Below, piece after piece: positions 5,579 to 23,103 of a stretch of 32,000 nt of DNA. The translations under genes and the position numbers were made by a program. A model generated the notes under the pieces. That model searched no databases and had not been told where the DNA came from. It saw only the letters and a list, made by a program, of their open reading frames with translations. Each line of letters begins with the position of its first letter. Position 1 is the stretch's first letter. The DNA comes from Candidatus Saganbacteria bacterium (GTDB lineage Bacteria > Margulisbacteria > WOR-1 > JAKLHX01): NCBI GenBank assembly GCA_026387835.1, contig JAPLKZ010000007.1:213434-245433 (forward strand). Direction: 5' to 3'.

Positions 5579-6298
5579 ATGAAAAACTTTTTTATATATA
5601 GCGGTATTATTGTTATAATAGTTGTGTTTGTAATTGCTAGATTGGTAGATCTGTTGCTCAATATTTTTTCAAATGACAAAGAACTTGACGCCCAGAAATT
5701 TCTATATAAGTGGTCGCACAGATTATTTTGGGTGATAAATTCCAAGGTTGAATTCTCCGGCCTCGAAAATATCCCCGCGACCGGCCCGGTGATCATTGTG
5801 GCAAGGTACAGGTTCCCCATAGATCTTATAATATCCACAGCAATTTTTAAGAGAAAAGTATATCTTGCCGTGGATTCGACATTTTTTGTTTTTCCGCTTT
5901 CATTTATGAGCAAAAGCGCAGGATATCTGAACATTGACAACAAGAATCTTTTGATCGCGGCGCAGCAGATGGATAAGACAATAGAAAAGCTCAGGGCGGG
6001 TTCGGCTATTTTTATGTTCATAAGCAGAAGGACAGACATTGACAGTCCCGTTCACGGCCCCGCTTTTGCGTCCCTTGAAACTAATATCCCGGTCATCCCT
6101 ATTGCGATAAATTCGACCCCGGAATTATCTGTATTCACTAATTTTATATATGGCATGTTCGTCCGTAAAAAGGTGTTAGATGTCATTAAGGTCAGGATCG
6201 GAGAGCCAATAATGTCAAATGAGCAAAATGACAGGATCGGAAGGGTTAAGTTCACAGAAGAAATAGTCAGAAAGATCGATTCGATGCTGAAAAAATAG
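5579..6298 (+). CDS. PlsC/LPLAT-fold acyltransferase-like protein with degenerate catalytic motifs
   Basis: N-terminal TM helix (IYSGIIVIIVVFVIARLV), then an LPLAT-like layout (GPVIIVARYRFPIDLII ... IFMFISRRTD ... NIPVIPIAI). The NHxxxxD motif reads RYRFPID (His to Tyr) and FPEGTR reads FISRRT. Confidence 0.65.
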   Translation: MKNFFIYSGIIVIIVVFVIARLVDLLLNIFSNDKELDAQKFLYKWSHRLFWVINSKVEFSGLENIPATGPVIIVARYRFPIDLIISTAIFKRKVYLAVDSTFFVFPLSFMSKSAGYLNIDNKNLLIAAQQMDKTIEKLRAGSAIFMFISRRTDIDSPVHGPAFASLETNIPVIPIAINSTPELSVFTNFIYGMFVRKKVLDVIKVRIGEPIMSNEQNDRIGRVKFTEEIVRKIDSMLKK

Positions 6299-6375: not shown

Positions 6376-9300
6376 TCAGCACATAAAGTTGTTATTACCG
6401 TTTTTGTCGGGTTCGCCGGTTATCGGATCTATTTTTTTTATTGAACCGGCACATATAGTATTACTGTCCTTGCTGTTGAGCATATCTTCTATTTTGGCCT
6501 TCAGGTCTTTTCCGATGCTGTCATTGTCCACTCTTAAGATCGCTTTCTTTACATATTCGGAATTAGATACCAACGCCAGTTGAGACAAGACGGCTATGGC
6601 ATCTTTGGTCTCGAGTACTGAAAGTATATAGGCGGCCACTTCAGGCTTGAAATTCCTTAAGAATTTAGCCGTCTCCTCCGGTCCCATCCCATTAGCGATA
6701 ATCTGAGAAAGGGCTACCTTGGCAGATTCTTTGGTTGCAAATGTCAATATGCTGCTCACCGCGACCTGTTCGATCTTCGGCTTGACGATGTCTTGGTCGG
6801 CAGGATCCTTTACAGTGGCTGTCATGAACAGCTGGGAATTGATCTGATCGAACATCTTCCGCATGATCTTATCGGTCTCATCCTTTAACGCGGGAGATCC
6901 CGGAAGATTTGATATAGTGCTTACGAGATTAAGCAGCTTTGGCATCGACACATTTATATCCGGCTTATCAGTAAGGGTCGAGATCATGCCGATGATCTTG
7001 CTTGCGGCGATTGCCGGGTTTTCAAGTATCATTTTGGCGATATAGTCATTTGATGCGTTGCCCTCAAGAAGTTTTAGTGCTGTCTGTGCTGCCTGCTTGC
7101 ACGTAATATTCGTTGAAGTGTTTTGCAGTGATTCTACGGCATTTTCAAGCTTGCTGATCACCAATTGTTTTGTGCTTTCTTTGATATTCGATCCGGTCAC
7201 CAAAGCTTTTACCTGCGTAAGCGTATCCTGCGCTTCTTCAGGCTTTGAGAAGTTCTTCTGTTTAAGTCCGTAGATGATGTTCTTTGCGTTTGCCGCGCTT
7301 GTGGGATCAAGTTTAGCCGATATGCTGTTAAGGAACTGTTCGATCGGTTTCTTCAACGATTTTATTTGAGCCTCGGTTTCGTTGCCCGAAGCGGATATCC
7401 TTTTGGCGTTGTCTGCCCTGTTCTTTATTCCTATTGCTATCCTTAATATAGATGCGTCTTCATTATTTAATTTATTGTTTTTATCGGCATTTATCTCCGC
7501 CTCAATTTTCTTCATTTCGTTTTCATCAAATACCCCTTTGGTTTCGTTAGTAACTGATGAAGCAGTTGAACTCCTTGATACTTGCTTGTCATCTCTGAAC
7601 GTATCAGGCCTTATGGCAGCCTGCGCCTGGTTGATGACTACAGGGCTCTGTGTCGTCCTCATTATGTTCTCGGCTATCTCAACGGCTTTTACGGCCTGTT
7701 TTGTCTCCTTGGCAATAGCCATCACCTGATGCTGTTTCTGCGGCTCAAGGTTCAATATGATCTGCGCCGCCTGCGTGGGTTCCTTATCCTTAACCGCCTG
7801 GACTATCATCTGTGTCGGCACCACATCAAGCACTTTTGCAGCTTCAGTGGCCGTCATCTCGCCTTTGATGACCTTAGAGACCACCTGCGAGACCGCTTTC
7901 TGTACAGCCTGTTCTGCCTTGCTTACCACTACGTTGGTATTCATGTCCTTGGGCACGTCGGTCGATACCTTGGAAAGTACCGCCACCAGGTCTTTTACCG
8001 CTGCCGTGTTGTTGGCGCTTATCTCGTCATCTATTACTATTATTATCTGGTTTATTACATCTTCTGCCTTTTTGGGATTATCCATCACCATCTGTACAAC
8101 TTTATCTTCCGTTGTAGGCTTCATGTTCATTGCCTGAGGTGCATGCTGTGCTTCCTTCACAGGTGTATATGAGGTCGGCATGCTTTCAGCCTGCTTCACC
8201 TGCGGTTTATTGACTACAGGAGCGGCCTGCACGGCTGTTTTGACTTGAGGCTCTATAACAGCCTGCGGAGCAGCTTCCATTTTCTGCGTGATCTTCTCTA
8301 TCGCCTTGTCTAAGGCCACCGTGATTCTGATATTGTTCGGTACCGCTGCTTTTACTTCTTCAAGCGCTATCACTATCTGCTGCATATTCTCCGGATTCAC
8401 TTTCTTTTCCGAATGTTCTATGACAGCAGGGATCATTCTTGCCACTTTGTCGATCATGTTGGGCTTGCTTGTTATAGCCCGCACAACATCTTCCACCGGC
8501 TTGTTGTTGACTATATCGTTCACCGCTTTCTGTGCCGCATCTTTTGCCCTTACGTTGACAGAGGTATTGTCCACTGCTTCCATGGCCTGCGTCAGCTTTT
8601 GTGCTATGACCTCTTTCACTTTTTCGTTGATCTTTGCACCGTTTGCCATGTCCTTCACCTGAGATATGAACCTCGCCACTTTTTCCGTGTTCGTGAAGTC
8701 GGCTTTCTTTATCTCTGAGCTCATGTCCTTTGCTTTTTTGGCCTCTGTTTGCGGCAGCTTCTCCGCTATCTGTGTCAGGAGCTGTTCCATTGGCTTCTTT
8801 AAGGCATTGAGCTGCGTCGCGGGGTCAACGGCTTTTTGGGATGCCTCTTTAGCGGCTAGAGCCCCGTTCTTTATGACGATGACTGTGGATACTATCCTTG
8901 TATCCGCCTTGCTGGCCTTGGACAAACTCTTCATATTGCTCATCTCCGCCCTTATCATATCTGTTTCTAACCTTGTGAACTCCTCATCAGTAGAGACCTC
9001 TTTGGACGCTTCAGTTGTCGGGGCTTGTTCTACCTGCCTGGGATTCCTGAATGAATCCTGCATTATGATTGGCTGAGCCTGGATGCCGGCTGGAGATACC
9101 TGGTTCCTCCTGGTGTTCTCGGCTATAACTACAGCTTTGATAGCTTGTTGTTTCTCATTGGCCATAGCGATCACCTGATGCCGTTTTCCAGGTTCAAGAT
9201 TGACTATCACCATAGCCGCTGCCTCAGGACTCGCCTTTGCCATGGCTCTCACTGTCACTTCAGCAGGAACGTTGTTAAGCGCTGTGGCCGCTTCTTCAGG

Positions 9301-12300
9301 AGTTATCTTGCCTTCGGCGACCTTTGAGATAACCAGCGAAACGGCTTTCTGTACCTCCTCCTGTACTTGCGGTCTGGTAACTGCAGGTGCGGGGTGTTTA
9401 GTTGTTTCGACCTGCGGCTGTTGTATGATCGCCTGCGGTGCGGTTTTCATATTTTGAATGATCTTTTCTATCGCTTTGTCTATGGCTACGGATACGGGGA
9501 TGTTCCTCGGATCGGATGTTTTTACTTGTTCAAGGGCGATCACTATCTGCTGGACGTTCTCAGGCTTTACCGGCTTTTCAGACTGCTCTATGACGATCGG
9601 GATCATCCTTGCCATTTTGTCTATCATATTTGGCTTGCTTCTTATTGCCTGTACCACCTGGTCCACCGGCATGTTTCTGACTATATTGGCAACTACCTTG
9701 ATGGCTACCTCTTTTGCCTTTACATTGTCGGAGGTGTTCTCTACAGCTTCCTTGGCCCGCGTCAGCTTTTGTGCAATTACTTCTTTTACCTTGTCATTGA
9801 CCTGGGCCTTGCTTGCCAGGTCCTTTATACGATCCATGAAATTAACAACATCTTCGGTATTAGTGAAACTGGCTCCCTTTATCTCCGAGATCATTTCCTT
9901 TGCTTTTTTGGCCTCAGTCGGCTGTAGCTTTGCCGCTATCTGTGTCAGAAGCTGTTCCATAGGCTTCTTTAATGCATTGAGCTGCGTCGTGGTATCAAGT
10001 GCGTTCAGTGATGCCCGCTCAGCGACTTCAGCGCTCCTCTTTATCCTGACGGCTGCGGATAACATCATCATCTCAGCCTTGTTGGCTTTGGGTGCGGTCG
10101 CGTTGTTCACTTCCGTTTGTACTTGGGTTATCTCTGCTGCTAAGGTTATATCTTCTAGCATAGTGGCACTGGACATTGCAACTGTTGAAGCTCTTGGTGT
10201 TTGCACGGTGTCATTGGATCTATCCGATCTTGCGGCAGCCGGTGTCTGGTTGACGGCCGGCGTCATCAGTTTGCTCATGATCCTCTCGGCTATCTCCGCC
10301 GCTCTGACGGCTTGGTTTGTATCCTTGGCCACGGTGATCACCTGCTGTTGTTTCTGCGGTTCAAGCCTTATTATGATCATTGCCGCCTGCGATGGCTCCA
10401 TATCTTTAACTGCGGGCACTATCATCTGCGCGGGCAGCACTTCAAGCATCTTTGCCGCTTCTGAGGCCGATATCTCGCTCGTCGAGACTTTAGCCACTAT
10501 CTTGGAGGCCATATTTTGCGCGTTTTTTGCAGCCATCTCGAGCACGGACACGGATTCTTTCTCCGATCGGGTCATTGATACTGGCGTTCTATCTATGATC
10601 GTGCTGAGGACCGACAATAGTTCGCTGGCACTTGTGACATTGTTGGCCTTGACCGCCTTGTCGGTGGCTGTGGTGATCTGGTTGACCTTGTCTTTTGCTT
10701 CCTCGGGCTTTACGATCGCTAACGTCATTACTTCGTTCTGCAGGCTTTGTTTTACATTGATCGCTTCACTTCTGACTGCAGGTTTGCTCACAGGTCTTGA
10801 TGCTGGCTGCGGTTTTTCCACCCTTGTGGCAATATCTGTTAAAATGTCATCGATTATTTTATCGACCGCACTTTTGATATTTTCAACATTGGAACGTGTT
10901 ATTTTTGCGTATTCTGCTGCTGTTTTGTTATACTGCTCTTCCGGGACGATAAGCTTGATCAAGGCCAGATTGTTTAATGCATTCGGCATCGTGGAAAGCG
11001 CGGATGCTGATAAAGCCTCGCGTATGATATCATTGACGCTGCGAGTTGTCTTTGTTCTGTCTGCTGGCTTTATCTGCACTTCAGGAGAGACGGTTTGATC
11101 TTTGCTCGACGTTAATAATGATATGACATTTGGCGGATGCTGCACCAAGTCCCTCGCCTTGAGTATTTGAGACTCTTTGGCATTCATTATTCTCTTGGTG
11201 AATGCATCGGCGACCTTTTGAAAGTTTGCGGAATCGGTCTTGTAAAGCTTTGCCAAGGCCTGCCCCTCTGATTTCAGAAAATTGTTTTGCATCTCAAGCT
11301 TTTCGCTGGCGCTGGCCTTGCTGAATTTATCCAGGAATTCTTGAGGCATTGTGAGGGTATTTGTTTTTGTGTCAAATTGCGGTAGTTTCCCTGTGTCCGT
11401 GCCCACGACTACGTTGATCTGTTCTTTAGATCCCGAGTTGACATAGAGACTGGCCATTTCGTCCCTTCCCGGCTTTTGTATGGAGCCGGCAATTTTGTAA
11501 AATTTATCGATATTGGCCTGGGTCAAGTTGTCCGTATTGTACCCTAATTGTTTCAGGTTATTTTTCGCATCTGCCAATAAGTTCTGGTCCACGGTCTTTC
11601 CGTCAGCCTTGTATATGCCCTTAGCGGCGCTCTCCATCGGGTCGTACTTGCCGATGTTGTTGACGATGCTCATTATCATTTCCTTTATCAGGCCGCTCAG
11701 GGTCATTTTCTCATCGAGTTCCCTTAAGAACTGCTGGTAAAAGGCTTCAGCGTCGAACATCGCTGTTGACGCGTCCACCTGGGCCTGAAGCTGCAGCTGT
11801 TCCGTCATGGCGAAGACGTTTGGTTTTGCGGCCGCGCCGCCGCCGGCTTTGCCTGCGCCTCCCGCGGCATTGGCTGAACCTCCGGCACTGTCTATATTTA
11901 AATTCTTTCCTTCTTTTTTCTTTGCATTGCCCTTGTTTATTGCGTTTGCTATCATCTTTGCCAGGTTATCGCTGAATAATACAGCGACAAGTGCCTTTGC
12001 AACATAGGAAGCGGCTCTACCGCCCATTGCCGGGGTAAGCAGCTTCTGGGCCCAGGTCGATACAGCGGTGTTCGAGTTTGTCATATTCATGAACCTGTCT
12101 TTTCCTTTAAAAAATGAGGATAAATTTGAAAGAGGGCCGCCGCCGTTAGAATTAAAAAGATGTGAGGCTTTCTTCGCTGCTTCTTGTTTTTCTCTTGCTT
12201 CCTTTTGCGCATCAGTTTCTTGTTTGTTAGCATTTTGAGGTTTTTCTGATTGATTTGGTTGTGTGGATTGACTTTCTGATGTGCCTGATGTGCCTGATGT

Positions 12301-15300
12301 GCCTGTTGTACCTTCGCCGCCGAATTCTAAACCACCGTCTACCGGGTAAGTCCCGTCTGCGCTTCCCTCTTTCTCTTGAACTTGTGTTTTACCGGAAGTA
12401 TCCGCATTTTTTGCCGGGTCATTTTTCACTTCTTTCGCAGCATCTTTAGAAGGCAAACCTTCTGCATTTTCCATTGTATTTGATCCGGGAGTAGTTGTAC
12501 CTTCGGTACCTCCGGTGGTGACATTACCGCCGGCATCGGCACCTCCCGCGTCGGCAGCTCCAACGCATGCCGCGACGATCGAGATGACCGCCTTGACTAT
12601 CGATATGATGAACATGATGTTCGCCATAACGAGTGCTTTCTCGGCATCCCTGATCTGGTTCATCCTGTCCACGTAGGTATGGAGTGTGTCGAACAGCTGC
12701 TGCAGCGCTGTGGTCGAGACTTCCTTGCTCGCTTGAATGCCCATCAGCGTATAATCCTGGGCATCCAGCGCTATGCCGCCCACGGACCTGAGCACCATGT
12801 TCCTTATTCTCCTCTGAGAGTCCATTACTTCCTGTGAAGCTGTCGCGGCGTTATAGGCCATGTCTATCTCTCTTCTCATGATATAGAAATTGCTTTGGTT
12901 CAACCCCACGTAGCCGTCGCTCGTGCTGACGATCAGGTCTTCCGTTGCCTGGGAAAGGATCTCTTTTAATGATTGATAGAGTTTGTCGAAACGGCCCTGG
13001 TCTTTTTGTTTGTCGATGATCTTCAGGACCTCGTCAAGGATATTTGTTTTATACCTGTCGAGGTCGCCGTACCCGGAATTTTTGTCTTCCTCGGCGCACT
13101 TTTTGTTATAGTAAGCCTGCATTATGACGATGGCCGCGATGATGACGGCGGCAACGATCGCCCCGACGCCGGTGCAGGCCAGCACTGCGGCGACGATCTC
13201 CATTATAATCTTCACTGCCGAGAACCAGAGATTGGTCATTGCCCGGTCAAGCTGCTTTTCCCACTGTGTCCGTGCGTTATGCGCGCTTATGTTCTCCCGG
13301 ACCAGTTCCGTCTTCAGTTGAAGTGCCTGCATATATCTTGCGTTCATGGACTTCAGGCCGTTCGATATGGTCTGGAAATGTCTTGCCGTCCATCCGATTC
13401 TTCCCATCAGCTGGAGCATAAGGTCGATGATCTCTTGTCCGGTGGTCTCTATCTGCATCATCCCCAGTCCGAGCATAAAAAGCTGCGACATCTCATCGGA
13501 TAATGCGGTGATCTGTGCCGCGTCGTTCCCCCACATGTCGTCGCCCACGTTTATATGGGACCCGGTAGTCAGCTGGTCGACAAGGCCTCTGTACTGCGTG
13601 GCGATATCGCTGATCGCATCCGCGACCATATTGCCGGTGATGCGTCTTTCTGTTTTATTGTCGTAAAATTTATCATCTTCATGATAAAGTTCCGGCTTTT
13701 CGTGTTCCAGCAGGTACATAATGTTATAAATTCCATCAAAAAGACCTTGTCCCATCATACCGCCTATGATGAAGCCGAGCATATTTGCGAAAAAGCTCCC
13801 GATTATTTTTTCTTTTTCAAGTTCCCATTCTCTTTCCTTGTTGTTTTCCTCGACCTCGTCCCTGAGGCTCTGCATGACGAGGGAAAAAGCCACCTTCATG
13901 TCGTCCTCTAAGGTTACTAACGAATCCTCGACTGCCGGAAGCTCTTCGCCCAGCGGGTTTTGTCCTGTGGCCGCGTAAAGGGCGATCATCACGAGGCGCG
14001 CTTTTGATTCCATCACCAGCATATACGCTTTTCTTAAGTTGTCGATGCTCTCGAGCTTGTCGCCTATACTGTTCAGATATTCTTCGTTCAAAGCTTTGAA
14101 CCCGTCGCCGACCCCTATTATGCCCCCGTTATAAGCGGTCATGATAAGATCGTTTTCTTCTTTGTCCAGCTGGTCGAGGATGTTATTGCATATCGACTTC
14201 ATCGAGATGCCCCACAGGTTCAATGCTTCCTCGACATTGTCGAAATTGATCCTTGTCGGTGTATACTGGAAATCCTCGATGGTCAACAGATATATGACAT
14301 CGGTAATTTTTTCCACAAAACTGGCGACAAAAAAAAGTGCGGGGCAGAACAAGCAGATGCCGAATGCCGTCCACATCGAGTCCAGCATTTCTTTTGCTTT
14401 TTCATGTTCCCACACTGAATAGGCGTATTTGTTGCGCGCCTCTATCTCCAGTTGCAGCTGGTTTATGTTGGCCAGCAATAATGTTCTTTCGCCGTCCGTG
14501 GTGTATTTGAGATAATCAAAGACCATGTTCCATCTTGATGAGTCGGAGGTTATCCCCGACATTATCTCGATCATCATGGATTTGAGCTTTTCTTTCACGG
14601 AGAGCGACATGTAATAGGCTTTTCTCAGGTCGTTGATTATCGTTTGTCCGTGGAGTATGGCGTATGCCAGGTCTTTGTTCAGGTCGTAATAACTATTCCC
14701 GTAGCCGTTATCGCCGGCTGCTGCCATCAGATACTGGCGGTTGGCCTCGTCCAGATAATTCAGTTCGAGTTTGACGAACGGGTCGGCGGTCCTCCTCTTT
14801 CTTTCTTCGATCACCACGTCGAGGAAGCCTTTAAGAGTGTCCGTCAGACTGGCCTGCACGTCCTTAAATGCTCTATCGATCGCTTCTTTTGCCGCGGTGT
14901 ATTTTTCCTCGTACTCTCTGTGCGTCGCGTCGAGTCCGATGAAATCAAGAAGTGAATTGATACAGCTGGAGGACCCGCCTTGTGCGGAAGCTTGCGCGCC
15001 CAGCATTTTTCTGTCATATTCCGCGTTGTTTTTATCATGTATGTAGTTCATCGTGTTGGTAAATATGAACTTTGGCCCCTGCATATCATGCCTGAAGCCT
15101 TTATTTATGATCTCAGTGTATTTGACGTCCCTGGAAGAGGCCTCCTTAGGCCCTTTAAAAAGCTGGAGAATGTAGCCCTTGATGTTTTCCTTAGTTTCGC
15201 CGATCATCGCGATACCGAGAAGCAGCGACCATAATTCCTGCAGCTTGTAATAATAGTCTTTGAATTTCGGATCAAGCGTGATATAACCGTCGCCGTAATC

Positions 15301-15699
15301 TGTTGTCCATGTCGATGAGGAATTCCCCGCCAGAAGTATGTCCAGGGTTTGCTTGATCTCCGCTCCGAGCCCTTCTACCGCCTGTGCTACCGCGTCCGGT
15401 TCTGCAACCTGATAATTATAATTGACGGGTGTTATCGCGGTGCTTTCGTTATCATAGGTTAAAGGCTGGTTCACGACATAGTTGCCCTGAGTATCAACAG
15501 TGTCAAGTTGTTCGGCATCGAAAACAGTTGCGTTGCTGTCTGTGTTGTCTGATGGAGTTGATACACCGTCAGCTGATGTGTTTGCCATTAAAGCATCAAA
15601 GGTTGATACAGTTGTGGAATAATTGACCTGACCCGTGATATTGGCATTCACGTCAGTGCGGGTTGTCTGATCAGGAATATCTATAGTTGTAGTGCTCAT
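6376..15699 (-). CDS. giant (3107 aa) multi-domain protein of unknown function: polar N-terminus, membrane-spanning segments, low-complexity linkers, long helical tandem repeats
   Basis: A single uninterrupted 9.3 kb ORF starting at ATG, with its own conserved promoter (15721-15757). There is no signal peptide (MSTTTIDIPDQTTRTDVNANITG). All plus-strand ORFs inside it look like antisense shadows. Confidence 0.9.
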   Translation of the reverse strand: MSTTTIDIPDQTTRTDVNANITGQVNYSTTVSTFDALMANTSADGVSTPSDNTDSNATVFDAEQLDTVDTQGNYVVNQPLTYDNESTAITPVNYNYQVAEPDAVAQAVEGLGAEIKQTLDILLAGNSSSTWTTDYGDGYITLDPKFKDYYYKLQELWSLLLGIAMIGETKENIKGYILQLFKGPKEASSRDVKYTEIINKGFRHDMQGPKFIFTNTMNYIHDKNNAEYDRKMLGAQASAQGGSSSCINSLLDFIGLDATHREYEEKYTAAKEAIDRAFKDVQASLTDTLKGFLDVVIEERKRRTADPFVKLELNYLDEANRQYLMAAAGDNGYGNSYYDLNKDLAYAILHGQTIINDLRKAYYMSLSVKEKLKSMMIEIMSGITSDSSRWNMVFDYLKYTTDGERTLLLANINQLQLEIEARNKYAYSVWEHEKAKEMLDSMWTAFGICLFCPALFFVASFVEKITDVIYLLTIEDFQYTPTRINFDNVEEALNLWGISMKSICNNILDQLDKEENDLIMTAYNGGIIGVGDGFKALNEEYLNSIGDKLESIDNLRKAYMLVMESKARLVMIALYAATGQNPLGEELPAVEDSLVTLEDDMKVAFSLVMQSLRDEVEENNKEREWELEKEKIIGSFFANMLGFIIGGMMGQGLFDGIYNIMYLLEHEKPELYHEDDKFYDNKTERRITGNMVADAISDIATQYRGLVDQLTTGSHINVGDDMWGNDAAQITALSDEMSQLFMLGLGMMQIETTGQEIIDLMLQLMGRIGWTARHFQTISNGLKSMNARYMQALQLKTELVRENISAHNARTQWEKQLDRAMTNLWFSAVKIIMEIVAAVLACTGVGAIVAAVIIAAIVIMQAYYNKKCAEEDKNSGYGDLDRYKTNILDEVLKIIDKQKDQGRFDKLYQSLKEILSQATEDLIVSTSDGYVGLNQSNFYIMRREIDMAYNAATASQEVMDSQRRIRNMVLRSVGGIALDAQDYTLMGIQASKEVSTTALQQLFDTLHTYVDRMNQIRDAEKALVMANIMFIISIVKAVISIVAACVGAADAGGADAGGNVTTGGTEGTTTPGSNTMENAEGLPSKDAAKEVKNDPAKNADTSGKTQVQEKEGSADGTYPVDGGLEFGGEGTTGTSGTSGTSESQSTQPNQSEKPQNANKQETDAQKEAREKQEAAKKASHLFNSNGGGPLSNLSSFFKGKDRFMNMTNSNTAVSTWAQKLLTPAMGGRAASYVAKALVAVLFSDNLAKMIANAINKGNAKKKEGKNLNIDSAGGSANAAGGAGKAGGGAAAKPNVFAMTEQLQLQAQVDASTAMFDAEAFYQQFLRELDEKMTLSGLIKEMIMSIVNNIGKYDPMESAAKGIYKADGKTVDQNLLADAKNNLKQLGYNTDNLTQANIDKFYKIAGSIQKPGRDEMASLYVNSGSKEQINVVVGTDTGKLPQFDTKTNTLTMPQEFLDKFSKASASEKLEMQNNFLKSEGQALAKLYKTDSANFQKVADAFTKRIMNAKESQILKARDLVQHPPNVISLLTSSKDQTVSPEVQIKPADRTKTTRSVNDIIREALSASALSTMPNALNNLALIKLIVPEEQYNKTAAEYAKITRSNVENIKSAVDKIIDDILTDIATRVEKPQPASRPVSKPAVRSEAINVKQSLQNEVMTLAIVKPEEAKDKVNQITTATDKAVKANNVTSASELLSVLSTIIDRTPVSMTRSEKESVSVLEMAAKNAQNMASKIVAKVSTSEISASEAAKMLEVLPAQMIVPAVKDMEPSQAAMIIIRLEPQKQQQVITVAKDTNQAVRAAEIAERIMSKLMTPAVNQTPAAARSDRSNDTVQTPRASTVAMSSATMLEDITLAAEITQVQTEVNNATAPKANKAEMMMLSAAVRIKRSAEVAERASLNALDTTTQLNALKKPMEQLLTQIAAKLQPTEAKKAKEMISEIKGASFTNTEDVVNFMDRIKDLASKAQVNDKVKEVIAQKLTRAKEAVENTSDNVKAKEVAIKVVANIVRNMPVDQVVQAIRSKPNMIDKMARMIPIVIEQSEKPVKPENVQQIVIALEQVKTSDPRNIPVSVAIDKAIEKIIQNMKTAPQAIIQQPQVETTKHPAPAVTRPQVQEEVQKAVSLVISKVAEGKITPEEAATALNNVPAEVTVRAMAKASPEAAAMVIVNLEPGKRHQVIAMANEKQQAIKAVVIAENTRRNQVSPAGIQAQPIIMQDSFRNPRQVEQAPTTEASKEVSTDEEFTRLETDMIRAEMSNMKSLSKASKADTRIVSTVIVIKNGALAAKEASQKAVDPATQLNALKKPMEQLLTQIAEKLPQTEAKKAKDMSSEIKKADFTNTEKVARFISQVKDMANGAKINEKVKEVIAQKLTQAMEAVDNTSVNVRAKDAAQKAVNDIVNNKPVEDVVRAITSKPNMIDKVARMIPAVIEHSEKKVNPENMQQIVIALEEVKAAVPNNIRITVALDKAIEKITQKMEAAPQAVIEPQVKTAVQAAPVVNKPQVKQAESMPTSYTPVKEAQHAPQAMNMKPTTEDKVVQMVMDNPKKAEDVINQIIIVIDDEISANNTAAVKDLVAVLSKVSTDVPKDMNTNVVVSKAEQAVQKAVSQVVSKVIKGEMTATEAAKVLDVVPTQMIVQAVKDKEPTQAAQIILNLEPQKQHQVMAIAKETKQAVKAVEIAENIMRTTQSPVVINQAQAAIRPDTFRDDKQVSRSSTASSVTNETKGVFDENEMKKIEAEINADKNNKLNNEDASILRIAIGIKNRADNAKRISASGNETEAQIKSLKKPIEQFLNSISAKLDPTSAANAKNIIYGLKQKNFSKPEEAQDTLTQVKALVTGSNIKESTKQLVISKLENAVESLQNTSTNITCKQAAQTALKLLEGNASNDYIAKMILENPAIAASKIIGMISTLTDKPDINVSMPKLLNLVSTISNLPGSPALKDETDKIMRKMFDQINSQLFMTATVKDPADQDIVKPKIEQVAVSSILTFATKESAKVALSQIIANGMGPEETAKFLRNFKPEVAAYILSVLETKDAIAVLSQLALVSNSEYVKKAILRVDNDSIGKDLKAKIEDMLNSKDSNTICAGSIKKIDPITGEPDKNGNNNFMC
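7369..9984 (-). repeat. two full in-frame tandem repeat units inside the giant gene (390 aa/1170 nt, then 482 aa with an insertion)
   Basis: QLNALKKPMEQLLTQIA begins at codon 1906 (nt 9984) and again at codon 2296 (nt 8814), exactly 1170 nt apart. At DNA level, gctatctgtgtcag-a/g-agctgttccat-a/t-ggcttcttta is found at 9934 and 8764. A degenerate third unit (QIKSLKKPIEQFLNSISAKL) starts at nt 7368. A partial unit lies upstream, at about 10280-10478. Confidence 0.85.
12276..12311 (-). repeat. 9-bp microsatellite-like repeat (ctgatgtgc x3 plus one degenerate copy) encoding (GTS)3
   Basis: Direct reading gives ctgatgtgc ctgatgtgc ctgatgtgc ctgttgtac. It lies within the Gly/Thr/Ser/Ala low-complexity region of the giant protein. 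Confidence 0.8.
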
Positions 15700-15720: not shown

Positions 15721-15757
15721 CTATATATATATCGTTGTATTGAAGCTAAAACTTGCG
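15721..15757 (-). promoter_or_regulatory. sigma-28-like conserved promoter, copy upstream of the giant gene
   Basis: Minus strand: CGCAAGTTTTAGCTTCAATACAACGATATATATATAG. The motif ends 21 nt before the ATG at 15699. Confidence 0.6.
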
Positions 15758-15791: not shown

Positions 15792-15823
15792 AAAATAATA
15801 GCGATTTATTAGCTGATTATTTT
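15792..15823 (-). terminator. possible AT-rich hairpin terminator after the 389-aa gene
   Basis: Minus strand: AAAATAATCAGC-TAATAAATC-GCTATTATTTT. This gives an 11-bp stem with one bulge and a 3' arm ending in TTTT, starting at the stop codon. The stem is almost entirely A/T, so it is weak. Confidence 0.3.
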
Positions 15824-16992
15824 CAGGTATTTGCTTTTCTTGCTTTGTTATCTGACCCGATAGCCATTGCTATCGAACGGGCGATCTCTTCCGGTGTGTT
15901 GAGGGTTGGATAAGTTAAAACTTCATTCATTCTTTTTCGTGCGTTTGACGACGCGAAAGTTGTTTCAAGTGACTTCATAAATTCCTGTGCCCTTAAACGG
16001 ACCTTTTCCGTTATTTTTGAATCCGCTAATTTTTGTTCGTGCCTCTTCTCATATGCTGTTTCATTCTCTTTCTCATCTGCCTTTCTTGCCTCGATAATGC
16101 CGGCCAATATTCTTTTAGCCATCCTCAGAGCTGACTCGTACACTTCAGTTGCCGCAGTCCATATTTTTGTAATTATTGTTATAACTTTAGGCATGTCTGC
16201 GTCAACAGCGGTTTCGTTCTTTGCTATTTGCGGCATTTCCTTGATCGGTGTCGCTGAAATGGCGCGCATCTGCTCCAATAAAGCGGGATCAATTTTAATG
16301 TCATTTTCTGTTGCGATAGATATAAGTTTGGTTGCCTGCTCCCCGCATGCTGTGATCTCTTTTTCGATCATCGATCTGGCCGGTTGCTTGTCTTTAAACT
16401 TTTCTCGCATTGCATTAAGCATATCATTCATCTTTTTGATGGCCTCAGCATCACCAGTGATGACTATGATCACATATTGTTTATTATGGTTTTTCAGGAT
16501 TATTTCGGTCTGGACTGCGATTTGAGAATTGTAGCCGGATTCTTGAGCGTGATAAGATGATAGTAATTCTTTTAAACTTATAGAATCGTCATTATGCCCG
16601 CAATATCCCAAAAAATCCTGTTTTGATCTTCTCAATGATTGTTCTGTTCTTATTCGGTTTTCTGTTGCACCGTTATTTCCTTCACCTTCTTGTTTCCTGA
16701 AATTAAGAATGGCTTCCTGGTGTTTTTTCATTTCCGACAGATAGCTGCGACCTACGGCAAAAGGTCTCATATAGGAAATAGTGTCGATCATAAAAGAAAA
16801 ACGCTCCGTAGTCGCGAAAGGGAACTTTTCCTGTTCTTGCGTAAAAGAACCGAGTACCCTGTAAGCAGGTCTTGATAGGTCGGGAACAGGTGTAATGACA
16901 GTTCTTGGCGTTGCCGTTGTACGCGATGTTAAGCCGTTCCCGGTTTCCTGTATCTTAGGATCGGTTTTAACAAGCGCAGGATCGGGCAACAT
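15823..16992 (-). CDS. hypothetical protein (389 aa), Lys/Glu-rich helical, no signal peptide
   Basis: ATG preceded by GGAG (GGAGATAATAT-ATG) and the conserved promoter. The N-terminus is polar (MLPDPALVKTDPKIQETGNGLTSRTTATPRT). No motif recognised. Confidence 0.75.
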   Translation of the reverse strand: MLPDPALVKTDPKIQETGNGLTSRTTATPRTVITPVPDLSRPAYRVLGSFTQEQEKFPFATTERFSFMIDTISYMRPFAVGRSYLSEMKKHQEAILNFRKQEGEGNNGATENRIRTEQSLRRSKQDFLGYCGHNDDSISLKELLSSYHAQESGYNSQIAVQTEIILKNHNKQYVIIVITGDAEAIKKMNDMLNAMREKFKDKQPARSMIEKEITACGEQATKLISIATENDIKIDPALLEQMRAISATPIKEMPQIAKNETAVDADMPKVITIITKIWTAATEVYESALRMAKRILAGIIEARKADEKENETAYEKRHEQKLADSKITEKVRLRAQEFMKSLETTFASSNARKRMNEVLTYPTLNTPEEIARSIAMAIGSDNKARKANT

Positions 16993-17003
16993 ATATTATC
17001 TCC

Positions 17004-17039
17004 CTATTTATATATCGATGGTAAGATCGCGAAATTTCA
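17004..17039 (-). promoter_or_regulatory. sigma-28-like conserved promoter, copy upstream of the 389-aa gene
   Basis: Minus strand: TGAAATTTCGCGATCTTACCATCGATATATAAATAG. The spacer is 1 nt shorter and the -35 is more divergent. The motif ends 11 nt before the ATG at 16992, and the SD sequence follows it immediately. Confidence 0.5.
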
Positions 17040-17059
17040 TTATATTCTAATTTTCTTTA

Positions 17060-17356
17060 CTAAACCGGCTTATCTGGACTGAATATATTGCTTTTGTCCG
17101 GTTTCTTTGCCTGTTCAGGCGTCATTTCTTTGTCTTTAATGACAGGAAGGCTATTATTCAGTTTACCTTGGTAATAGTTTTCCACGACTGCCTGTAAACC
17201 ATTCATCACTAATTCTGGCATGTTCGCTATTGCTGCTGCCGCGCTATTTACTATATCTAATCTTGCCTGTGCCACTCTTGCCTGTCCCGGTTCGCCATAT
17301 AATTTCTGTATTGGCGGTGATCCTTGTTGTTTAGCTTGTATATATATATATGTCAT
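17060..17356 (-). CDS. hypothetical small protein (98 aa)
   Basis: ATG with AGGAG 7 nt upstream, 10 nt after the preceding stop codon. Ala-rich central helix (ARLDIVNSAAAAIANMPELV). Pro/Lys-rich tail. Confidence 0.65.
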   Translation of the reverse strand: MTYIYIQAKQQGSPPIQKLYGEPGQARVAQARLDIVNSAAAAIANMPELVMNGLQAVVENYYQGKLNNSLPVIKDKEMTPEQAKKPDKSNIFSPDKPV

Positions 17357-17366
17357 TGTTTTTCTC

Positions 17367-17630
17367 CTACACTACCCTTCCCGTTCCTTCATCCGAAGAT
17401 GCGATCCCTACTCTGTTCACAGGGAGTGGCGTCTTATCGAAGCCCGCCAATCTCTGGATATTCTTCACTGTCTCAAAGGCTCCTTTTACTTGTCCAAACT
17501 GTTTTATTGCTTCTGTCAGGCTCGCAAGAGCAAGCCATTTGCTATCCTCCGTTTTTGCCGGCACGCCACCATTGCCTTTGATTCCCGCCATAAATATTGT
17601 CCCATTGATCGGATCCATATCCATGCCCAT
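17367..17630 (-). CDS. hypothetical small protein (87 aa)
   Basis: The tracked ORF (to 17663) overlaps the upstream gene. The internal ATG at 17630 (MGMDMDPINGT) is preceded by AAGGAGG (TAAGGAGGATAATATT-ATG), which begins in the upstream stop codon. Confidence 0.6.
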   Translation of the reverse strand: MGMDMDPINGTIFMAGIKGNGGVPAKTEDSKWLALASLTEAIKQFGQVKGAFETVKNIQRLAGFDKTPLPVNRVGIASSDEGTGRVV

Positions 17631-17643
17631 AATATTATCCTCC

Positions 17644-18981
17644 TTACGATCCCCGTTGAGCATCTAGGACTGAAACGCCTCTCTTATCACTTTGCCTAGA
17701 ACCGGCCACTGTTTTACTGAAAATGTTATAATTTACCAGGTTAAAGGTATTTTCATAATAATTATCTACTGTATCCTTGAACTTTTTATTCCAGAATTTT
17801 TCGACTCCCGAGCCGCCCAGATCGATTGCAGTTTTCAGTTGTTTCAGTTTTTCCAGCCCGGACGGATCTTCATCCGTGACAAGCTGTTTTTCGACAAGGT
17901 TTATTATCTTTGCGTTTATCGCTGCGGAAAATGTATCAATTTTCACGTTCGGATCCTTGCCACTTCTTACCCGCTCAAGAAATGACTTAATAGAACCGAG
18001 GGTTTGTTTGTCTTTTTTATCATCGGACAGGTCCTCATAGACAGATATGGATAATGCTAATTTACGATGATATTTCTTTTCTTCATCAGCACCGACCTCT
18101 CTCTTAATGATCTTATCCAGCATATCGATAGACCTGTCTAATGCTTCTTCAACATGTTTTCTGCTGTAAATATCACGTTTATCTTTTGGGATCTCTCTAC
18201 CGGTTTCTGAACTTGTCCATGCGTTGATGTTCATCGCGGATTGCCTGGAATTGTTTATGTCATAGACGGTGAACGACATATGCTTCACGTATTGATTGAA
18301 CTTATCTTGGCTCATGTTCCCGGGGCCGTTCTGCATGGTTATGATCACAGTGTTCCAGAAGCCGTCGGGTGTCACGTGGTTGCGGTACACCCCATCGATT
18401 CGGTCATCTCCGTAAAAAGCATTCCACGAATAAGGGTTGAACTTTCCGAGGTTATATTTCCCGAGTAGATCATTGACCTCTTTCATTTTTATTTTACTTG
18501 ACTTGCCTTCATCTGACAGGATCGTTTTTACGCCGGATACAAGATCGGCCGCTTGTTTTTCTTCCCATCCGAAACTTGCCGCGACGATCCTTGCCTGCGC
18601 GTCAGTCGATTTTGGATCATTCCCGGAACCCATAACAGTTGAAACGGGAAAAGCTGATTGCAAATCTCTTGTTCCTGTTGTTTCTGATATTTTGGCAACT
18701 GCCGGTTTTGCAAGCGGTCTACTTGCAGTTGTCGGCTCTTCAATCGTTTTACCTGCGGTTTGAACAGCTGGTCGTGCTTCAGGTCGCGTTGCTTCTGATG
18801 CTCTTGCTTGTTTGCTTGGAGCATCATTTTGATCTGGTATTTGCTTGGCTTTTAATCCTGAAGACTTAAACAAACTTGTTATTCCCATTCCCAACCAGTA
18901 TATCGGGGTGAATTTTGCAATTCCCTCCATGTTCCTGAACATGTCACACGTTTGATCAACCCCGATTAAACCTGTACCCAT
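17644..18981 (-). CDS. hypothetical protein (445 aa): one N-terminal hydrophobic segment, Pro/Ala/Thr-rich linker, globular plus Lys/Asp-rich helical C-terminal part
   Basis: Long ORF with AGAGG upstream of the ATG. Contains FTPIYWLGMGITSLF, then ARPAVQTAGKTIEEPTTASRPLAKPAV. No motif recognised. Confidence 0.75.
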   Translation of the reverse strand: MGTGLIGVDQTCDMFRNMEGIAKFTPIYWLGMGITSLFKSSGLKAKQIPDQNDAPSKQARASEATRPEARPAVQTAGKTIEEPTTASRPLAKPAVAKISETTGTRDLQSAFPVSTVMGSGNDPKSTDAQARIVAASFGWEEKQAADLVSGVKTILSDEGKSSKIKMKEVNDLLGKYNLGKFNPYSWNAFYGDDRIDGVYRNHVTPDGFWNTVIITMQNGPGNMSQDKFNQYVKHMSFTVYDINNSRQSAMNINAWTSSETGREIPKDKRDIYSRKHVEEALDRSIDMLDKIIKREVGADEEKKYHRKLALSISVYEDLSDDKKDKQTLGSIKSFLERVRSGKDPNVKIDTFSAAINAKIINLVEKQLVTDEDPSGLEKLKQLKTAIDLGGSGVEKFWNKKFKDTVDNYYENTFNLVNYNIFSKTVAGSRQSDKRGVSVLDAQRGS

Positions 18982-19087
18982 AATACCTCTTTGTCCGTTC
19001 CCCTAAATATAAATCATAACTGCGTCTACAGTCATAGCGGTCAGATCAAAAGATCTAAATATTTTCATTTGACAGCTCTGCCCAATA

Positions 19088-19291
19088 TCAAGCAATACTT
19101 ACCTTTGAAAAATCTCTTACAGCTTGCTCCAATTGACCCATTGCAACTCTTATTGTGGATTCATCTATAGCTGCTTTCGTTATTCCTTTGTCAAGTTGAC
19201 TCCTAGTTTTCATGCTTGCTTGAGATACTTCTGCTGGTGTTTCCTTGGCAGCCGACTTTGTTTGTCCAACTCTTTGTGTTGCTTCAACCAT
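19088..19291 (-). CDS. hypothetical small protein (67 aa)
   Basis: ATG preceded by AAGGGAG, with the conserved promoter directly upstream. Predicted to be helical. No motif recognised. Confidence 0.6.
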   Translation of the reverse strand: MVEATQRVGQTKSAAKETPAEVSQASMKTRSQLDKGITKAAIDESTIRVAMGQLEQAVRDFSKVSIA

Positions 19292-19305
19292 TGTTTTTCT
19301 CCCTT

Positions 19306-19342
19306 CTATATATCTATCGTATCAAATATATGCAAAATTGCA
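19306..19342 (-). promoter_or_regulatory. sigma-28-like conserved promoter, copy upstream of the 67-aa gene
   Basis: Minus strand: TGCAATTTTGCATATATTTGATACGATAGATATATAG. The motif ends 14 nt before the ATG at 19291 (AAGGGAGAAAAACA-ATG). Confidence 0.6.
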
Positions 19343-19352
19343 TGGAATTTCA

Positions 19353-20393
19353 CTATTTACCTAAAATATCAAATATCATGTGTTTTAACCAGTTTTCGAC
19401 TTCTTGATCCCCCTGTCCGTCCAATGTCTTGTTTAACTCATCCACCGACGTATTCACCTTATCTATTTTGTCATTTATTTCGTTTGTCCCTGCCTTGCCG
19501 CTGCTGATGCTGCCTTCTATTTTTTCCAGAGATGTATTGATCTCGAGAATTTTGCCCAACCTCATTTCCATCGAAAGGTTGTTTGAGGCAGCTACTATGG
19601 CCGCTATCATTTTCATGTCATCCAGTTTCTTAATTAGGTTTTTTATGGACTTGGCTGCATTCTGCAGTTCCATTGTCTTTTTCTTATAAAACTCTTTGTC
19701 AAGTTCTTTTTGCTCCTCGTTTAATTGTCTCCGCTGTTCTATGATATTTTCTGAAATTCTATTGCAGGACTCCATGCAGGTGTTTATTGCCTGCGTTAAA
19801 TAGTCTTCATTTATACCGAATAATACTCCGCCATCAATTATATCTTCTATACTTCCGTCTGTTTCATCGTCTGATGTCTGGTCATCAAACTGTGCGACGT
19901 TGATCTCCCCGTTTATATTATTTATTATATTTTTTATATTTTCCTGGGCTTTTTCTTCTGTGAGCTGGCACGCGAATTCCTTCAAGACAGCATTTGCGTT
20001 GCCGGGTTGGCCTTGTTTGCCGGGTATGTTGCCGATCACTCTGATCCAAGCGTTATCTTTATTAAACTTGCCGTTTCGAAACAATATTTCGACATCTTTT
20101 ACTTTCCCATAAGAGGCCCTTTTTATCTCCAAGTAGGCCGATAATGCGAGGTTTGCCTGATTTTTATCGGCAAAATTTGTTTTGTTTAAAAATGCTTCAA
20201 GTTCTGCCCTGTTTTTTATTCCGCTGTCTTTTAGTTTGCCGTCATTTAGATTTTTATCTTTCATCCAATTTGAGACGATAGCGCCTGTTTTGCTGCGGTC
20301 AGCATTGGGAATATCTTGACCTGTTGCCTGCGTTTGATTTTGATTTAATATCTTAGTTTGATCTATTTGTTTGTAATCTACTTGAAAAACCAT
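19353..20393 (-). CDS. hypothetical protein (346 aa), C-terminal coiled-coil-like
   Basis: The ATG lies 1 nt after the upstream stop codon (GGAGGCATAAC-ATG). The N-terminus is Asn/Gln-rich. The C-terminal half is rich in heptad-like Ile/Leu/Lys/Glu/Asn. Confidence 0.75.
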   Translation of the reverse strand: MVFQVDYKQIDQTKILNQNQTQATGQDIPNADRSKTGAIVSNWMKDKNLNDGKLKDSGIKNRAELEAFLNKTNFADKNQANLALSAYLEIKRASYGKVKDVEILFRNGKFNKDNAWIRVIGNIPGKQGQPGNANAVLKEFACQLTEEKAQENIKNIINNINGEINVAQFDDQTSDDETDGSIEDIIDGGVLFGINEDYLTQAINTCMESCNRISENIIEQRRQLNEEQKELDKEFYKKKTMELQNAAKSIKNLIKKLDDMKMIAAIVAASNNLSMEMRLGKILEINTSLEKIEGSISSGKAGTNEINDKIDKVNTSVDELNKTLDGQGDQEVENWLKHMIFDILGK

Positions 20394-20394
20394 G

Positions 20395-22041
20395 TTATGC
20401 CTCCACCAGATGTTCGGAGCCTTCGACCGGGATCTTATCAGGCTCCGGACCGCTGCTTGTCTCCTCGATCAAACGTTTTTCGACTAGCCGCAGTTTTGAT
20501 ATCTCTTTTAAGATATTGTTGTTCTTTCTTCTCGTCAGCATGTCGTTCATGACCTCTATCTGCCTCCGGACTATATCGATCATTCTCTTGTTGGCGTTAT
20601 ACTTCAGGCTCTCGAACTCCGGTTCGCTTATGTCTATGCCGAGACGGGCCGCGTTCTTCAAAAGGCCTTTCATTTTCTTCTCGACAAGCTTGAAGGCCGG
20701 GCCGCGCAGGTGATACAGCGTAGCGCGTTCTAGCAGGGCTTCTTTTATCATCTCCACGACTTTTTCTTTAGCGGAGATCTCCGCCTCAAAAGCTATCTTC
20801 TCGTCGAGCTCTCTCGTGTATACGGACAGGGCCATCAGCCCGTTCTTGAGTTTCCTGATCTCGAAGCTGGTCGTAAGGTACGTCCTGAGGTCGTTTTTCA
20901 GGAGGCGCTTCATATAAAGCCCGCGCATCCTGTTCACAAGTATCTCTTTCTCGTCATCTTTGGTGTATTCGAACTCGCCTTTTTCTTTTTTTCCTCCGCT
21001 CTGATCGTCGGTGCTGGTATTTACCTGCAGGCCTACGTTTCCGACGGGAACATCTATCAGATTGAACCCGAGGTCCTCTTTTCTGTCTTTCCAGACTTTA
21101 TTTGCCCATTTATCGATATCGGTGCCGGTTTTTTTCAGCATATTCAGTATCGGGGTAATATCATCGCTCGATTTGTCCTTGTTTACCATCTTGCTTATCA
21201 GTTTTTCTTCAAGATGTTCGAGAGCGAACTTTGACAGCTCCTCCTTGACCTTTTCGCCGGCGGAATCGACCGTCCCCTGAAGGTTGTCGTTGTACCCGCC
21301 GAAATCCCATCCGCCCGTCTTCTCGTTGAAGAAGGAGTTTTCAAGAATGCTGTGGGTAGCCTGCTCGAAAAAGGCGCTTTCGAGCTTGCTCCCGGAGAGC
21401 TCGCGCATAAGGAGGGTCTCTTTTATCTTCACCGAGATATCGGCTCTGATGGCTGCCCTTGCCTCTTTCTGCAGTCCGGCCATATCCTTGTCGGACAGGC
21501 CTTTTTCCTTCAGCGCGGCTTCAAGCTTCACCAGTTTTTCGGGAGTCGTTTTTTTGTTGTTAGTGAGGAACTCGCAGTAAGCGGCCGAATACTGCTCGAC
21601 AAGGGTCTGGGCTTCTTTGTTGTCGGCAAAGTTTGAACCGTTGTTCAGGTTAAAACTGTTGGCTATGCGGCTGGCTGTCTTTTTGATGATGACCTTGCCG
21701 ACCTCCACGGAGTCTTTTTCTGTCTCCTCCCCGGCCTTTTTCGGCGCGTCTTCTTTTTCCCTTGCGCCTATCTTCTGTCCTTGATCAAGCGGGTTGCCGG
21801 CCAGTATTATCCCCGAGCCTGCTACCTTGTTGACTATCGCTCTTAGCACGGACATGCCTTCCTCGCCGAAGTTCTCCGCCTCAAGCACCTGCATGAGGTT
21901 CTCCTCGATCCTTGCGGAGTCGTACTTGCTTTTTGTAAAGTTTTTGTCCTTGATATCGCCCGCAACTCCGGATATCAGGGCGTTATTGGCTATGGCCGCC
22001 ATTTCCTGGCTTGCCGCTTTGTTGAGTATGTTCACTGACAT
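20395..22041 (-). CDS. hypothetical protein (548 aa), Lys/Glu-rich helical
   Basis: ATG preceded by GGGGGAAATGAA, 14 nt after the upstream stop codon. No TM segment or signal peptide. No motif recognised. Confidence 0.8.
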   Translation of the reverse strand: MSVNILNKAASQEMAAIANNALISGVAGDIKDKNFTKSKYDSARIEENLMQVLEAENFGEEGMSVLRAIVNKVAGSGIILAGNPLDQGQKIGAREKEDAPKKAGEETEKDSVEVGKVIIKKTASRIANSFNLNNGSNFADNKEAQTLVEQYSAAYCEFLTNNKKTTPEKLVKLEAALKEKGLSDKDMAGLQKEARAAIRADISVKIKETLLMRELSGSKLESAFFEQATHSILENSFFNEKTGGWDFGGYNDNLQGTVDSAGEKVKEELSKFALEHLEEKLISKMVNKDKSSDDITPILNMLKKTGTDIDKWANKVWKDRKEDLGFNLIDVPVGNVGLQVNTSTDDQSGGKKEKGEFEYTKDDEKEILVNRMRGLYMKRLLKNDLRTYLTTSFEIRKLKNGLMALSVYTRELDEKIAFEAEISAKEKVVEMIKEALLERATLYHLRGPAFKLVEKKMKGLLKNAARLGIDISEPEFESLKYNANKRMIDIVRRQIEVMNDMLTRRKNNNILKEISKLRLVEKRLIEETSSGPEPDKIPVEGSEHLVEA

Positions 22042-22055
22042 TTCATTTCCCCCGT

Positions 22056-22262: not shown

Positions 22263-22279
22263 CGCGCGTTCCCTCCCTT

Positions 22280-23047: not shown

Positions 23048-23103
23048 CTTCCGTTATATAACAAAGCAGGCCAAAACAACATCAATGCGCGTATGTTCAT
23101 ATG

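Follow-up and report, generated by a model that had tools for sequence, protein, structure and literature searches.

A giant, putatively membrane-inserting protein encoded with a gene cluster under sigma-28-like promoters in Saganbacteria and Margulisbacteria

Type III translocators (YopB, IpaB, SipB and AopB) are proteins of 400–600 amino acids (aa) in which a helical segment leads into a single two-helix hydrophobic hairpin with a short Gly-rich turn, and their polar N-terminus carries no Sec signal. Chlamydial Inc proteins possess a bilobed hydrophobic domain of 40–60 residues whose two flanks lie on one side of the membrane, and they have no signal peptide. The polar hubs HubP, FimV and TipN consist of a membrane anchor and a long, repetitive, rapidly evolving cytoplasmic arm and are linked to motility regulons. 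Promoters of the sigma-28 class (FliA, SigD and WhiG) follow the consensus TAAAGTTT-N11/12-GCCGATAA. Here we describe a 3107-aa protein, hereafter the giant, that invites comparison with all of these. It is encoded in a 32,000-nucleotide stretch of a Candidatus Saganbacteria genome (assembly GCA_026387835.1, contig JAPLKZ010000007.1, positions 213,434–245,433 of the forward strand), which is designated as the window. An original prediction, made from the letters of this stretch, had viewed the giant as a membrane-anchored scaffold with one very long extended helical domain.

By its sequence relatives, the giant belongs to a so far unannotated family of very large, putatively membrane-inserting proteins that is known only from Saganbacteria and Margulisbacteria, and it is best explained as the membrane-inserting member of a lineage-specific multi-gene system that uses sigma-28-type promoters. 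The family has in common an N-terminal peptide, a core of five helical-hairpin modules and a variable C-terminal arm. Neither the giant nor its cluster can be assigned to any known kind of system, and none of the families considered could be shown to include the giant.

A five-module core between a polar leader and a variable arm

The open reading frame (ORF) runs from an ATG at 15699 to a stop at 6376 on the minus strand, and its product ends in GNNNFMC, as predicted. In GenBank, it is a hypothetical protein of a Candidatus Saganbacteria metagenome-assembled genome (MAG) and is called from Met38 (3070 aa); the first ATG is the better start because a family-conserved peptide lies upstream of Met38. 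The original prediction had named repeat misassembly as a danger. Logan contigs from three other sequencing runs contain the identical 9324-nt frame except for 2 nt, one of them covering the full frame within a 49.8-kb contig, and the longest exact DNA repeat within the ORF is 21 nt. The giant ORF is thus confirmed as a genuine gene and not an assembly artefact. The two differences between the Logan contigs and the window are neighbouring non-synonymous changes, R767G and W770G (window 13390–13401), in module 3. As for the origin of the stretch, the adjacent glutamine synthetase is 75% identical to a MAG protein and 67–68% identical to Margulisiibacteriota proteins, and the product of the neighbouring gene p548 is 100% identical to a Saganbacteria protein encoded on a 249-kb contig.

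An exhaustive HMMER search with residues 140–1060 against 1.84 billion representatives returned 42 proteins of 425–4184 aa at E ≤ 1e-3 (23 at E ≤ 1e-10), including the query itself. All named members come from Saganbacteria or Margulisiibacteriota, and orthologues of 3521 and 3654 aa were found. Pfam, NCBIfam, PHROGs, PADLOC, PDB sequence searches and Foldseek yielded no significant match for the giant. A word-index search with the N-terminal 1100 aa and with the family alignment had no match, although the exhaustive search and GenBank hold the family; a scan of a genome collection by exact 8-mers, which reaches close relatives only, had none either. We found no description of the family in the literature on giant proteins, flagella and motility of Saganbacteria and Margulisbacteria.

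The predicted helical region of roughly 1000 aa, broken by hydrophobic segments, corresponds to aa ~129–1063 and contains four such segments. This core aligns to itself as ~190-aa modules, and family sequences match it at several offsets per protein. A module is made up of a short beta-hairpin (GDGxxxxN), a helix of ~40 aa and a helix of 60–67 residues with a near-invariant Asn and a hydrophobic tip. In an AlphaFold2 model of the core, built on an 11-sequence alignment (pLDDT 68, pTM 0.68), the long helix is hydrophobic at its far end, where it folds back. In 35 of the 42 sequences an iterated module profile counted exactly five modules; the other seven, all short, contain fewer, and at least two of them have no start Met. 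The core is a fixed five-module array and not a length-variable rod. A TolC-like combination of beta-hairpin and long helices was considered and rejected, the strands being only 4–6 residues long.

The hydrophobic hairpins at the tips of the long helices are conserved across the 42 homologues, and the giant is the sole protein with hydrophobic segments among the ~18 proteins of its cluster; both findings bear out the predicted membrane anchoring. The element that is invariably strong in the relatives is one hairpin of 40–53 residues with a short Gly-rich turn, and hairpin 3 of the giant has a length of 41–45 residues. Of the five hydrophobic elements, only two have a length that consistently suffices to cross a membrane. 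The hairpin flanks are enriched in Lys and Arg (15.5% vs 10.3% overall). Foldseek of the core against the PDB gave nothing significant (best E 0.16), and profiles of the repeat, the core and p548 retrieved only noise from PDB sequences.

Ahead of the core, the polar Thr/Asn/Asp-rich start had been described correctly: the leader (aa 1–128) contains 16% Thr, 10% Asp, 10% Ala, 9% Val, 9% Asn and 8% Ser and is acidic, with 2 Lys and Arg against 18 Asp and Glu. By composition and hydropathy it has no hydrophobic stretch and hence no Sec-type signal. The peptide D[IV]N[AP]NA..P.Y[IL] occurs at residues ~10–35 in nearly all family members and stays at the extreme N-terminus regardless of the leader length ahead of the first module, which ranges from ~10 to ~1440 residues. 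The giant itself shows this layout of a peptide followed by a disordered leader.

Behind the core, the low-complexity tracts noted originally all lie within the linker (aa 1050–1312): GTSGTSGTS at aa 1133–1141, AGGSANAAGGAGKAGGGAAAKP at aa 1272–1293, and a tract that had been given as GADAGGADAGG and really reads AADAGGADAGG, one residue off. The arm that follows comprises ~1800 helical residues rich in Ala, Lys, Val and Gln. The last ~2000 aa had been regarded as repeats throughout; they do contain three units of ~400 aa and a partial copy of 73 aa, but non-repeated helical sequence flanks the units. The units are 37–40% identical overall and up to 68% locally, and two further degenerate traces were found. 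Instead of one extended helical domain or fibre, an AlphaFold2 model of one unit, with the three copies as alignment (pLDDT 74), displays two compact all-helical bundles separated by a disordered linker; its helices are 6–39 residues long and form no continuous coiled coil. The arms of relatives vary in the number and kind of repeats, and a role as tether, also proposed originally, or as spacer is possible for this reason. The giant ends in Cys (…NFMC; window 6376–6381), as does the relative P0040 (…IGVSC), while in many other relatives small or hydrophobic residues precede a terminal Ala (…AALA, …GFAA, …GSVA).

Each repeat unit and the C-terminal tail carry one copy of a motif of ~80 residues (..EAAK.L...P.......P..AA.II.LEP.K...V..), four copies in all. 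Pfam places it below threshold in MgtE_N (24.3 bits, cut-off 25.9) and FliG_M (18.3 bits, cut-off 25; E 0.003). With a seven-copy profile, the ten best PDB sequences were all FliG (E 0.007–0.05), covering ARM_M only. Foldseek of the repeat against the PDB gave nothing significant, the best match being to designed solenoids (E 0.033), with FliG 3hjl ranked sixth. These similarities point, marginally, to a FliG/MgtE-type ARM-like motif. The likeness to FliG and MgtE lies in this motif (..P..AA.II..LEP.K...V..), which recurs four times in the giant; its setting here is a 400-aa repeat of a membrane protein, as opposed to a rotor protein or Mg2+ channel. Of the features that define FliG (FliG_N, FliG_M and FliG_C above threshold and a torque helix), only the FliG_M similarity was found, and of those that define MgtE (MgtE_N, a CBS pair and a channel domain), only the subthreshold MgtE_N match, with no CBS or channel domain.

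Sigma-28-like promoters and a conserved gene cluster

The giant has its own promoter, as predicted. It is one of six intergenic coding-strand copies of GCAAGTTT-N14-CGATA(T/G)ATA(T/A)ATAG in the window, where 0.14 would be expected; a weaker seventh match lies at 11530, inside the giant ORF. As in sigma-28 promoters, GCAAGTTT-N12-mmCGATAt matches six of the eight −35 positions, contains the invariant CGATA core of the −10 element and has equal spacing; it differs in that the conserved −10 region is 8 nt longer (ATAWATAG), and no matching sigma factor was seen. Of the features expected of the class, those of sequence and position were found, namely a −35 element like TAAAGTTT, a −10 element like GCCGATAA, a spacing of 11–12 nt and recurrence upstream of co-regulated genes. 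The motif is conserved across species, with 23 instances at nine loci and an invariant 14-nt spacer, and several instances lie directly upstream of giant orthologues. In the related loci L092 (3868), L095 (~16380), L103 and L106, the ATG of the giant gene follows the ATAG of the promoter after 0–2 nt; leaderless mRNAs are therefore implied. The public call of the giant in L095 starts ahead of the promoter, which probably makes it too long. In the window, no Shine-Dalgarno sequence is present between the promoter of the giant and its ATG. When metagenomes were scanned with the extended motif, nine matches were obtained, three of them upstream of giant-family genes, and no recognisable flagellar gene was seen downstream of any of the nine. 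The possible terminator noted upstream of the giant found no support: the structure is an AU hairpin of −6.5 kcal/mol (z = −0.53), and a terminator scan of this region detected nothing.

The giant gene had been taken as isolated; it is actually the last gene of a conserved co-oriented cluster, which the six promoter copies split into about six transcription units. Synteny with p548, p252, p1021 and the small genes is kept in 8 of 8 other loci examined. In L091 (a 217-kb JGI contig from a related organism), the order is a nucleotidyltransferase gene, five small genes, genes for 974-, 323-, 548-, 480-, 115- and 85-aa proteins, a 3521-aa giant, an acyltransferase and a GT2-TPR glycosyltransferase, and variants of this arrangement occur in every other locus read. 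Two small genes directly precede the giant in L091, L092 and L093. The best-conserved partner is p548 (33–42% identity), with 14 homologue clusters whose names are only those of Saganbacteria or Margulisbacteria.

No signal peptide and no hydrophobic or transmembrane (TM) segment was found in the ~17 upstream cluster proteins. The first 30 residues of the cluster proteins contain 30% Ser, Thr, Asn and Gln, compared with 16% in neighbouring genes. Searches of the upstream proteins against Pfam, NCBIfam, PHROGs and PADLOC identified no curated family above cut-off, except for the EF-hand domains of p585; PHROGs matched none of the ten larger cluster proteins scanned, and PADLOC, with no match for the giant, gave among seven other proteins scanned only a marginal JetC match for p346 (E 0.009). 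The idea that the cluster is a diverged late flagellar operon, with proteins the size of FlgK, FlgL and FliD, was rejected, as no flagellar family appeared even at E ≤ 10.

p585 (585 aa), which has no signal peptide, contains several calcium sites like those of EF-hands and dockerins, and no counterpart of it turned up in pairwise searches of the other cluster loci. p1021, rich in Tyr, Asn, Trp and Gly, contains a Thr-rich linker (TTTTTTDVTTYTTTTTTDP...), ends in a highly charged Lys/Glu tail and likewise has no signal peptide. The counterparts of p1021, with 974 aa in L091 (24% identity), 692 aa in L095 and, by position, 1172 aa in L005, are very divergent. At 22056–23047, a mechanical ORF list gives overlapping GTG ORFs of 255 and 124 aa, whereas public gene calls and orthologues give a 252-aa gene (22280–23038) followed by a 68-aa gene (22056–22262). 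A gene of the 23S-rRNA-intervening-sequence type, encoding a four-helix bundle, lies just before the small cluster genes in L005 (13096–13458), L094 (9318–9677) and L096 (4000–4356), and none is present in the window.

The flanking chromosomal genes encode glutamine synthetase, RpiB, a sugar nucleotidyltransferase, a fatty acid synthase/polyketide synthase (FAS/PKS)-like set and the GT2-TPR glycosyltransferase. The acyltransferase gene also adjoins the giant gene in L091, L092 and L096, and the GT2-TPR gene lies within the cluster or next to it in L091, L095 and L097. The FAS/PKS-like set (1550–5513, minus strand; two ketosynthases, a 156-aa protein, an acyl carrier protein and a FabG-type reductase) lies between the two in the window and looks like a lineage-specific insertion, because the acyltransferase and GT2-TPR genes are adjacent in L091.

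Table 1. Features of the giant gene and its surroundings in the window
Feature	Position	Strand	Remarks
Giant ORF	6376..15699	minus	3107 aa, 9324 nt; GenBank MCX5749335.1
Sigma-28-like promoter of the giant	15721..15756	minus	GCAAGTTT, 14 nt, CGATATATATATAG; first base of CAAGTTx at 15755; ends 21 nt before ATG
Five other promoter copies	start 29880, 28967, 23138, 19340, 17038	minus	GCAAGTTT-N14-CGATAKATAWATAG; first base of CAAGTTx
Polar Thr/Asp/Asn-rich leader, aa 1-128	15316..15699	minus	without signal peptide
Family N-terminal peptide, aa 15-27	15619..15657	minus	TDVNANITGQVNY; family motif D[IV]N[AP]NA..P.Y[IL]
Conserved core, aa 129-1063	12511..15315	minus	five tandem ~190-aa modules
Core modules			aa 129-239, 332-481, 515-696, 706-892, 913-1063
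Hydrophobic segment 1, aa 441-472	14284..14379	minus	by hydropathy
Hydrophobic segment 2, aa 632-664	13708..13806	minus	by hydropathy; equivalent hairpin 40-53 residues in all aligned relatives
Hydrophobic hairpin 3, aa 822-866	13102..13236	minus	two ~19-residue helices flanking CTGVG turn
Hydrophobic segment 4, aa 1020-1052	12544..12642	minus	by hydropathy
Gly/Ala/Thr/Ser/Lys low-complexity linker, aa 1050-1312	11764..12552	minus	encloses family-conserved amphipathic helix, aa 1229-1254
Non-repeated helical region, aa 1313-1619	10843..11763	minus	
Long repeat A, aa 1620-2025	9625..10842	minus	
Long repeat B, aa 2016-2415	8455..9654	minus	followed by partial copy, aa 2409-2481 (73 aa)
Long repeat C, aa 2490-2900	7000..8232	minus	
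C-terminal tail, aa 2901-3107	6379..6999	minus	fourth, diverged ARM-like motif; final Cys
FliG/MgtE-N-like ARM-like motif (marginal), copy 1, aa 1723-1805	10285..10533	minus	other copies 9118-9366, 7669-7917, 6541-6795
Co-oriented partner cluster	15823..29880	minus	giant is the last gene
Four small cluster ORFs	28980-29828	minus	
p585	27145-28902	minus	EF-hands
p1021	23205-26270	minus	
p548	20395-22041	minus	
Other cluster genes			p99, p107, p252, p68, p346, p67, p445, p87, p98, p389
PlsC-type acyltransferase	5579..6298	plus	convergent to giant; one N-terminal TM helix
GT2-TPR glycosyltransferase	430..1542	minus	

A possible tethered scaffold and its alternatives

We tentatively favour a reading, which we would still not call probable, in which the giant is anchored permanently in the inner membrane, extends a long modular arm into the cytoplasm and serves as a scaffold that organises its partners. 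The giant would stay in the inner membrane of the cell itself, and both of its ends would be cytoplasmic; the anchor would be the five-module core, its hydrophobic hairpin tips entering the membrane, and the long, length-variable arm would dock or position the soluble proteins encoded by the cluster. The robust elements are hairpins of double length whose turns are short and uncharged, and both ends should therefore share a side of the membrane. The missing signal peptide, the Lys/Arg-rich flanks and the FliG/MgtE-like motifs, which to our knowledge occur only in cytoplasmic proteins, make the cytoplasm the simplest choice for that side. The original prediction left open which side the repeat domain faces, and these features tentatively suggest the cytoplasm. 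As a membrane-tethered organising scaffold, the giant would be comparable to the polar hub proteins, with which it shares the logic only: its anchor is a multi-hairpin core of ~935 residues and not one helix, no homology was detected, and Pfam finds no LysM, FimV or coiled-coil signature in it.

Several points weigh against this scaffold. The topology is inferred from hydropathy only, and in this protein segments 1 and 4 might each cross the membrane just once, in which case the arm would face outside. The partners look extracellular, judging from the calcium sites of p585 and the linker and body of p1021, yet all are without Sec signals. The Ser/Thr/Asn/Gln-rich N-termini of the cluster proteins are a further difficulty, and the constant place of a motif at the very N-terminus would befit an export signal. 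The best PDB sequence match of the module profile is a type III translocator, the FliG/MgtE similarity is under every curated threshold, and the docking of partners by the arm is a prediction.

In the main rival reading, which we consider possible but somewhat unlikely, the giant would leave the cell together with the other products of the cluster along a route that needs no signal peptide, flagellar-type or otherwise type III-like, and its hairpins would insert into a target, partner or outer membrane in the manner of YopB, IpaB, AopB or Inc proteins. Sigma-28-like promoters run across the whole cluster, and FlgV, which is co-conserved with flagella and sigma-28, is present in Margulisbacteria (PMC11607428); however, no type III or flagellar gene and no TPR class II chaperone was seen within ±10 kb at the nine loci, and the metagenome scan with the promoter led to no flagellar gene. 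The absence of Sec signals from ~18 proteins, several of them extracellular-looking, their polar N-termini and the constant position of the N-terminal peptide whatever the leader length argue for export, as does the best NCBIfam match of p585, the XopAW family of type III calcium-binding effectors (E 3e-8, below cut-off), and the two small genes directly upstream of the giant at three loci suggest chaperones. A 34-module profile had a single match below E 0.1 among PDB sequences, AopB (E 0.013), which spans the helix and the TM hairpin and contains the identical TGVGA turn; this match is marginal and has a strong compositional bias, and Pfam found no SseC/IpaB/YopB-type translocator domain in the giant (E ≤ 1) or in five relatives (E ≤ 0.01). 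The giant is like the translocators in its helix-and-hairpin units and its polar, signal-less N-terminus, but it has five tandem modules instead of one hairpin, and its 3107 residues with well-folded bundles and an otherwise cytoplasmic FliG/MgtE-like motif count against export. Hairpin 3 of the giant and the 40–53-residue hairpins of its aligned relatives also resemble the bilobed domains that define Inc proteins, from which the giant differs in phylum, in having no known host, in the several hairpins of its core and in the lack of sequence similarity.

Alternatively, a new system for export or surface assembly could have the giant itself as its platform or conduit in the membrane, with the modules forming the membrane part and the ARM-like arm collecting signal-less proteins. 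It is the sole membrane protein of the cluster, the module number fixed at five suggests a defined membrane assembly, the partners are extracellular-looking without Sec signals, and the GT2-TPR glycosyltransferase and a sugar nucleotidyltransferase are conserved beside the cluster. We regard this entirely inferential proposal as quite improbable, since the cluster lacks an ATPase or any other source of energy, membrane-spanning length is reached consistently by only two of the five hydrophobic elements, and nothing resembles a known channel. A broader view, in which ~14 kb of signal-less genes and the giant constitute a previously unrecognised sigma-28-controlled cell-envelope system, with the giant as its only membrane component, be it a conduit or platform or a translocator-like protein delivered into another membrane, seems to us unlikely. 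A single-chain analogue of 5:2 motors (MotA, ExbB, GldL and ZorA) was rejected: the cluster has no B-type partner with a TM helix, and neither PADLOC, searched for anti-phage defence membrane motors such as ZorA, nor Pfam gave a match for the giant. Long helices combined with hydrophobic hairpins would also befit a tape-measure-like protein of a phage or prophage or a secreted alpha-helical pore-forming toxin, and the top folds among viral models (BFVD) are those of minor tail proteins and tape-measure proteins. None of these similarities is significant (E 0.012–0.03, probability ≤0.25, TM ~0.1), PHROGs was empty for the ten larger cluster proteins, no TMP domain, phage structural neighbour or ClyA/Hbl-type match was found, and the locus, with housekeeping cellular genes as neighbours, is syntenic across species; this reading is very improbable. 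Size, low-complexity tracts and long repeats might finally suggest an RTX- or adhesin-type surface fibre or a misassembled repeat, both of which the original prediction had raised against itself. This is scarcely credible: Pfam and NCBIfam show no calcium-binding nonapeptide, Ig-like, cadherin or other adhesin domain, there is no secretion signal or signal peptide, the repeats are only 37–68% identical as protein, and besides the three independent assemblies with the same frame the two long orthologues exist.

Saganbacteria and Margulisbacteria are uncultured sister lineages of Cyanobacteria whose cell biology is hardly known. The locus described here is a conserved, co-regulated set of ~18 genes around one giant, putatively membrane-inserting protein whose fold is recognised by no PDB search. 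The conserved promoter provides a direct handle on the regulon in genomes and metatranscriptomes, and for structural work the fixed five-module core offers a clearly delimited target. If the giant is a motility-linked scaffold, or part of a new route for signal-less proteins, the system would represent a new kind of envelope machine.

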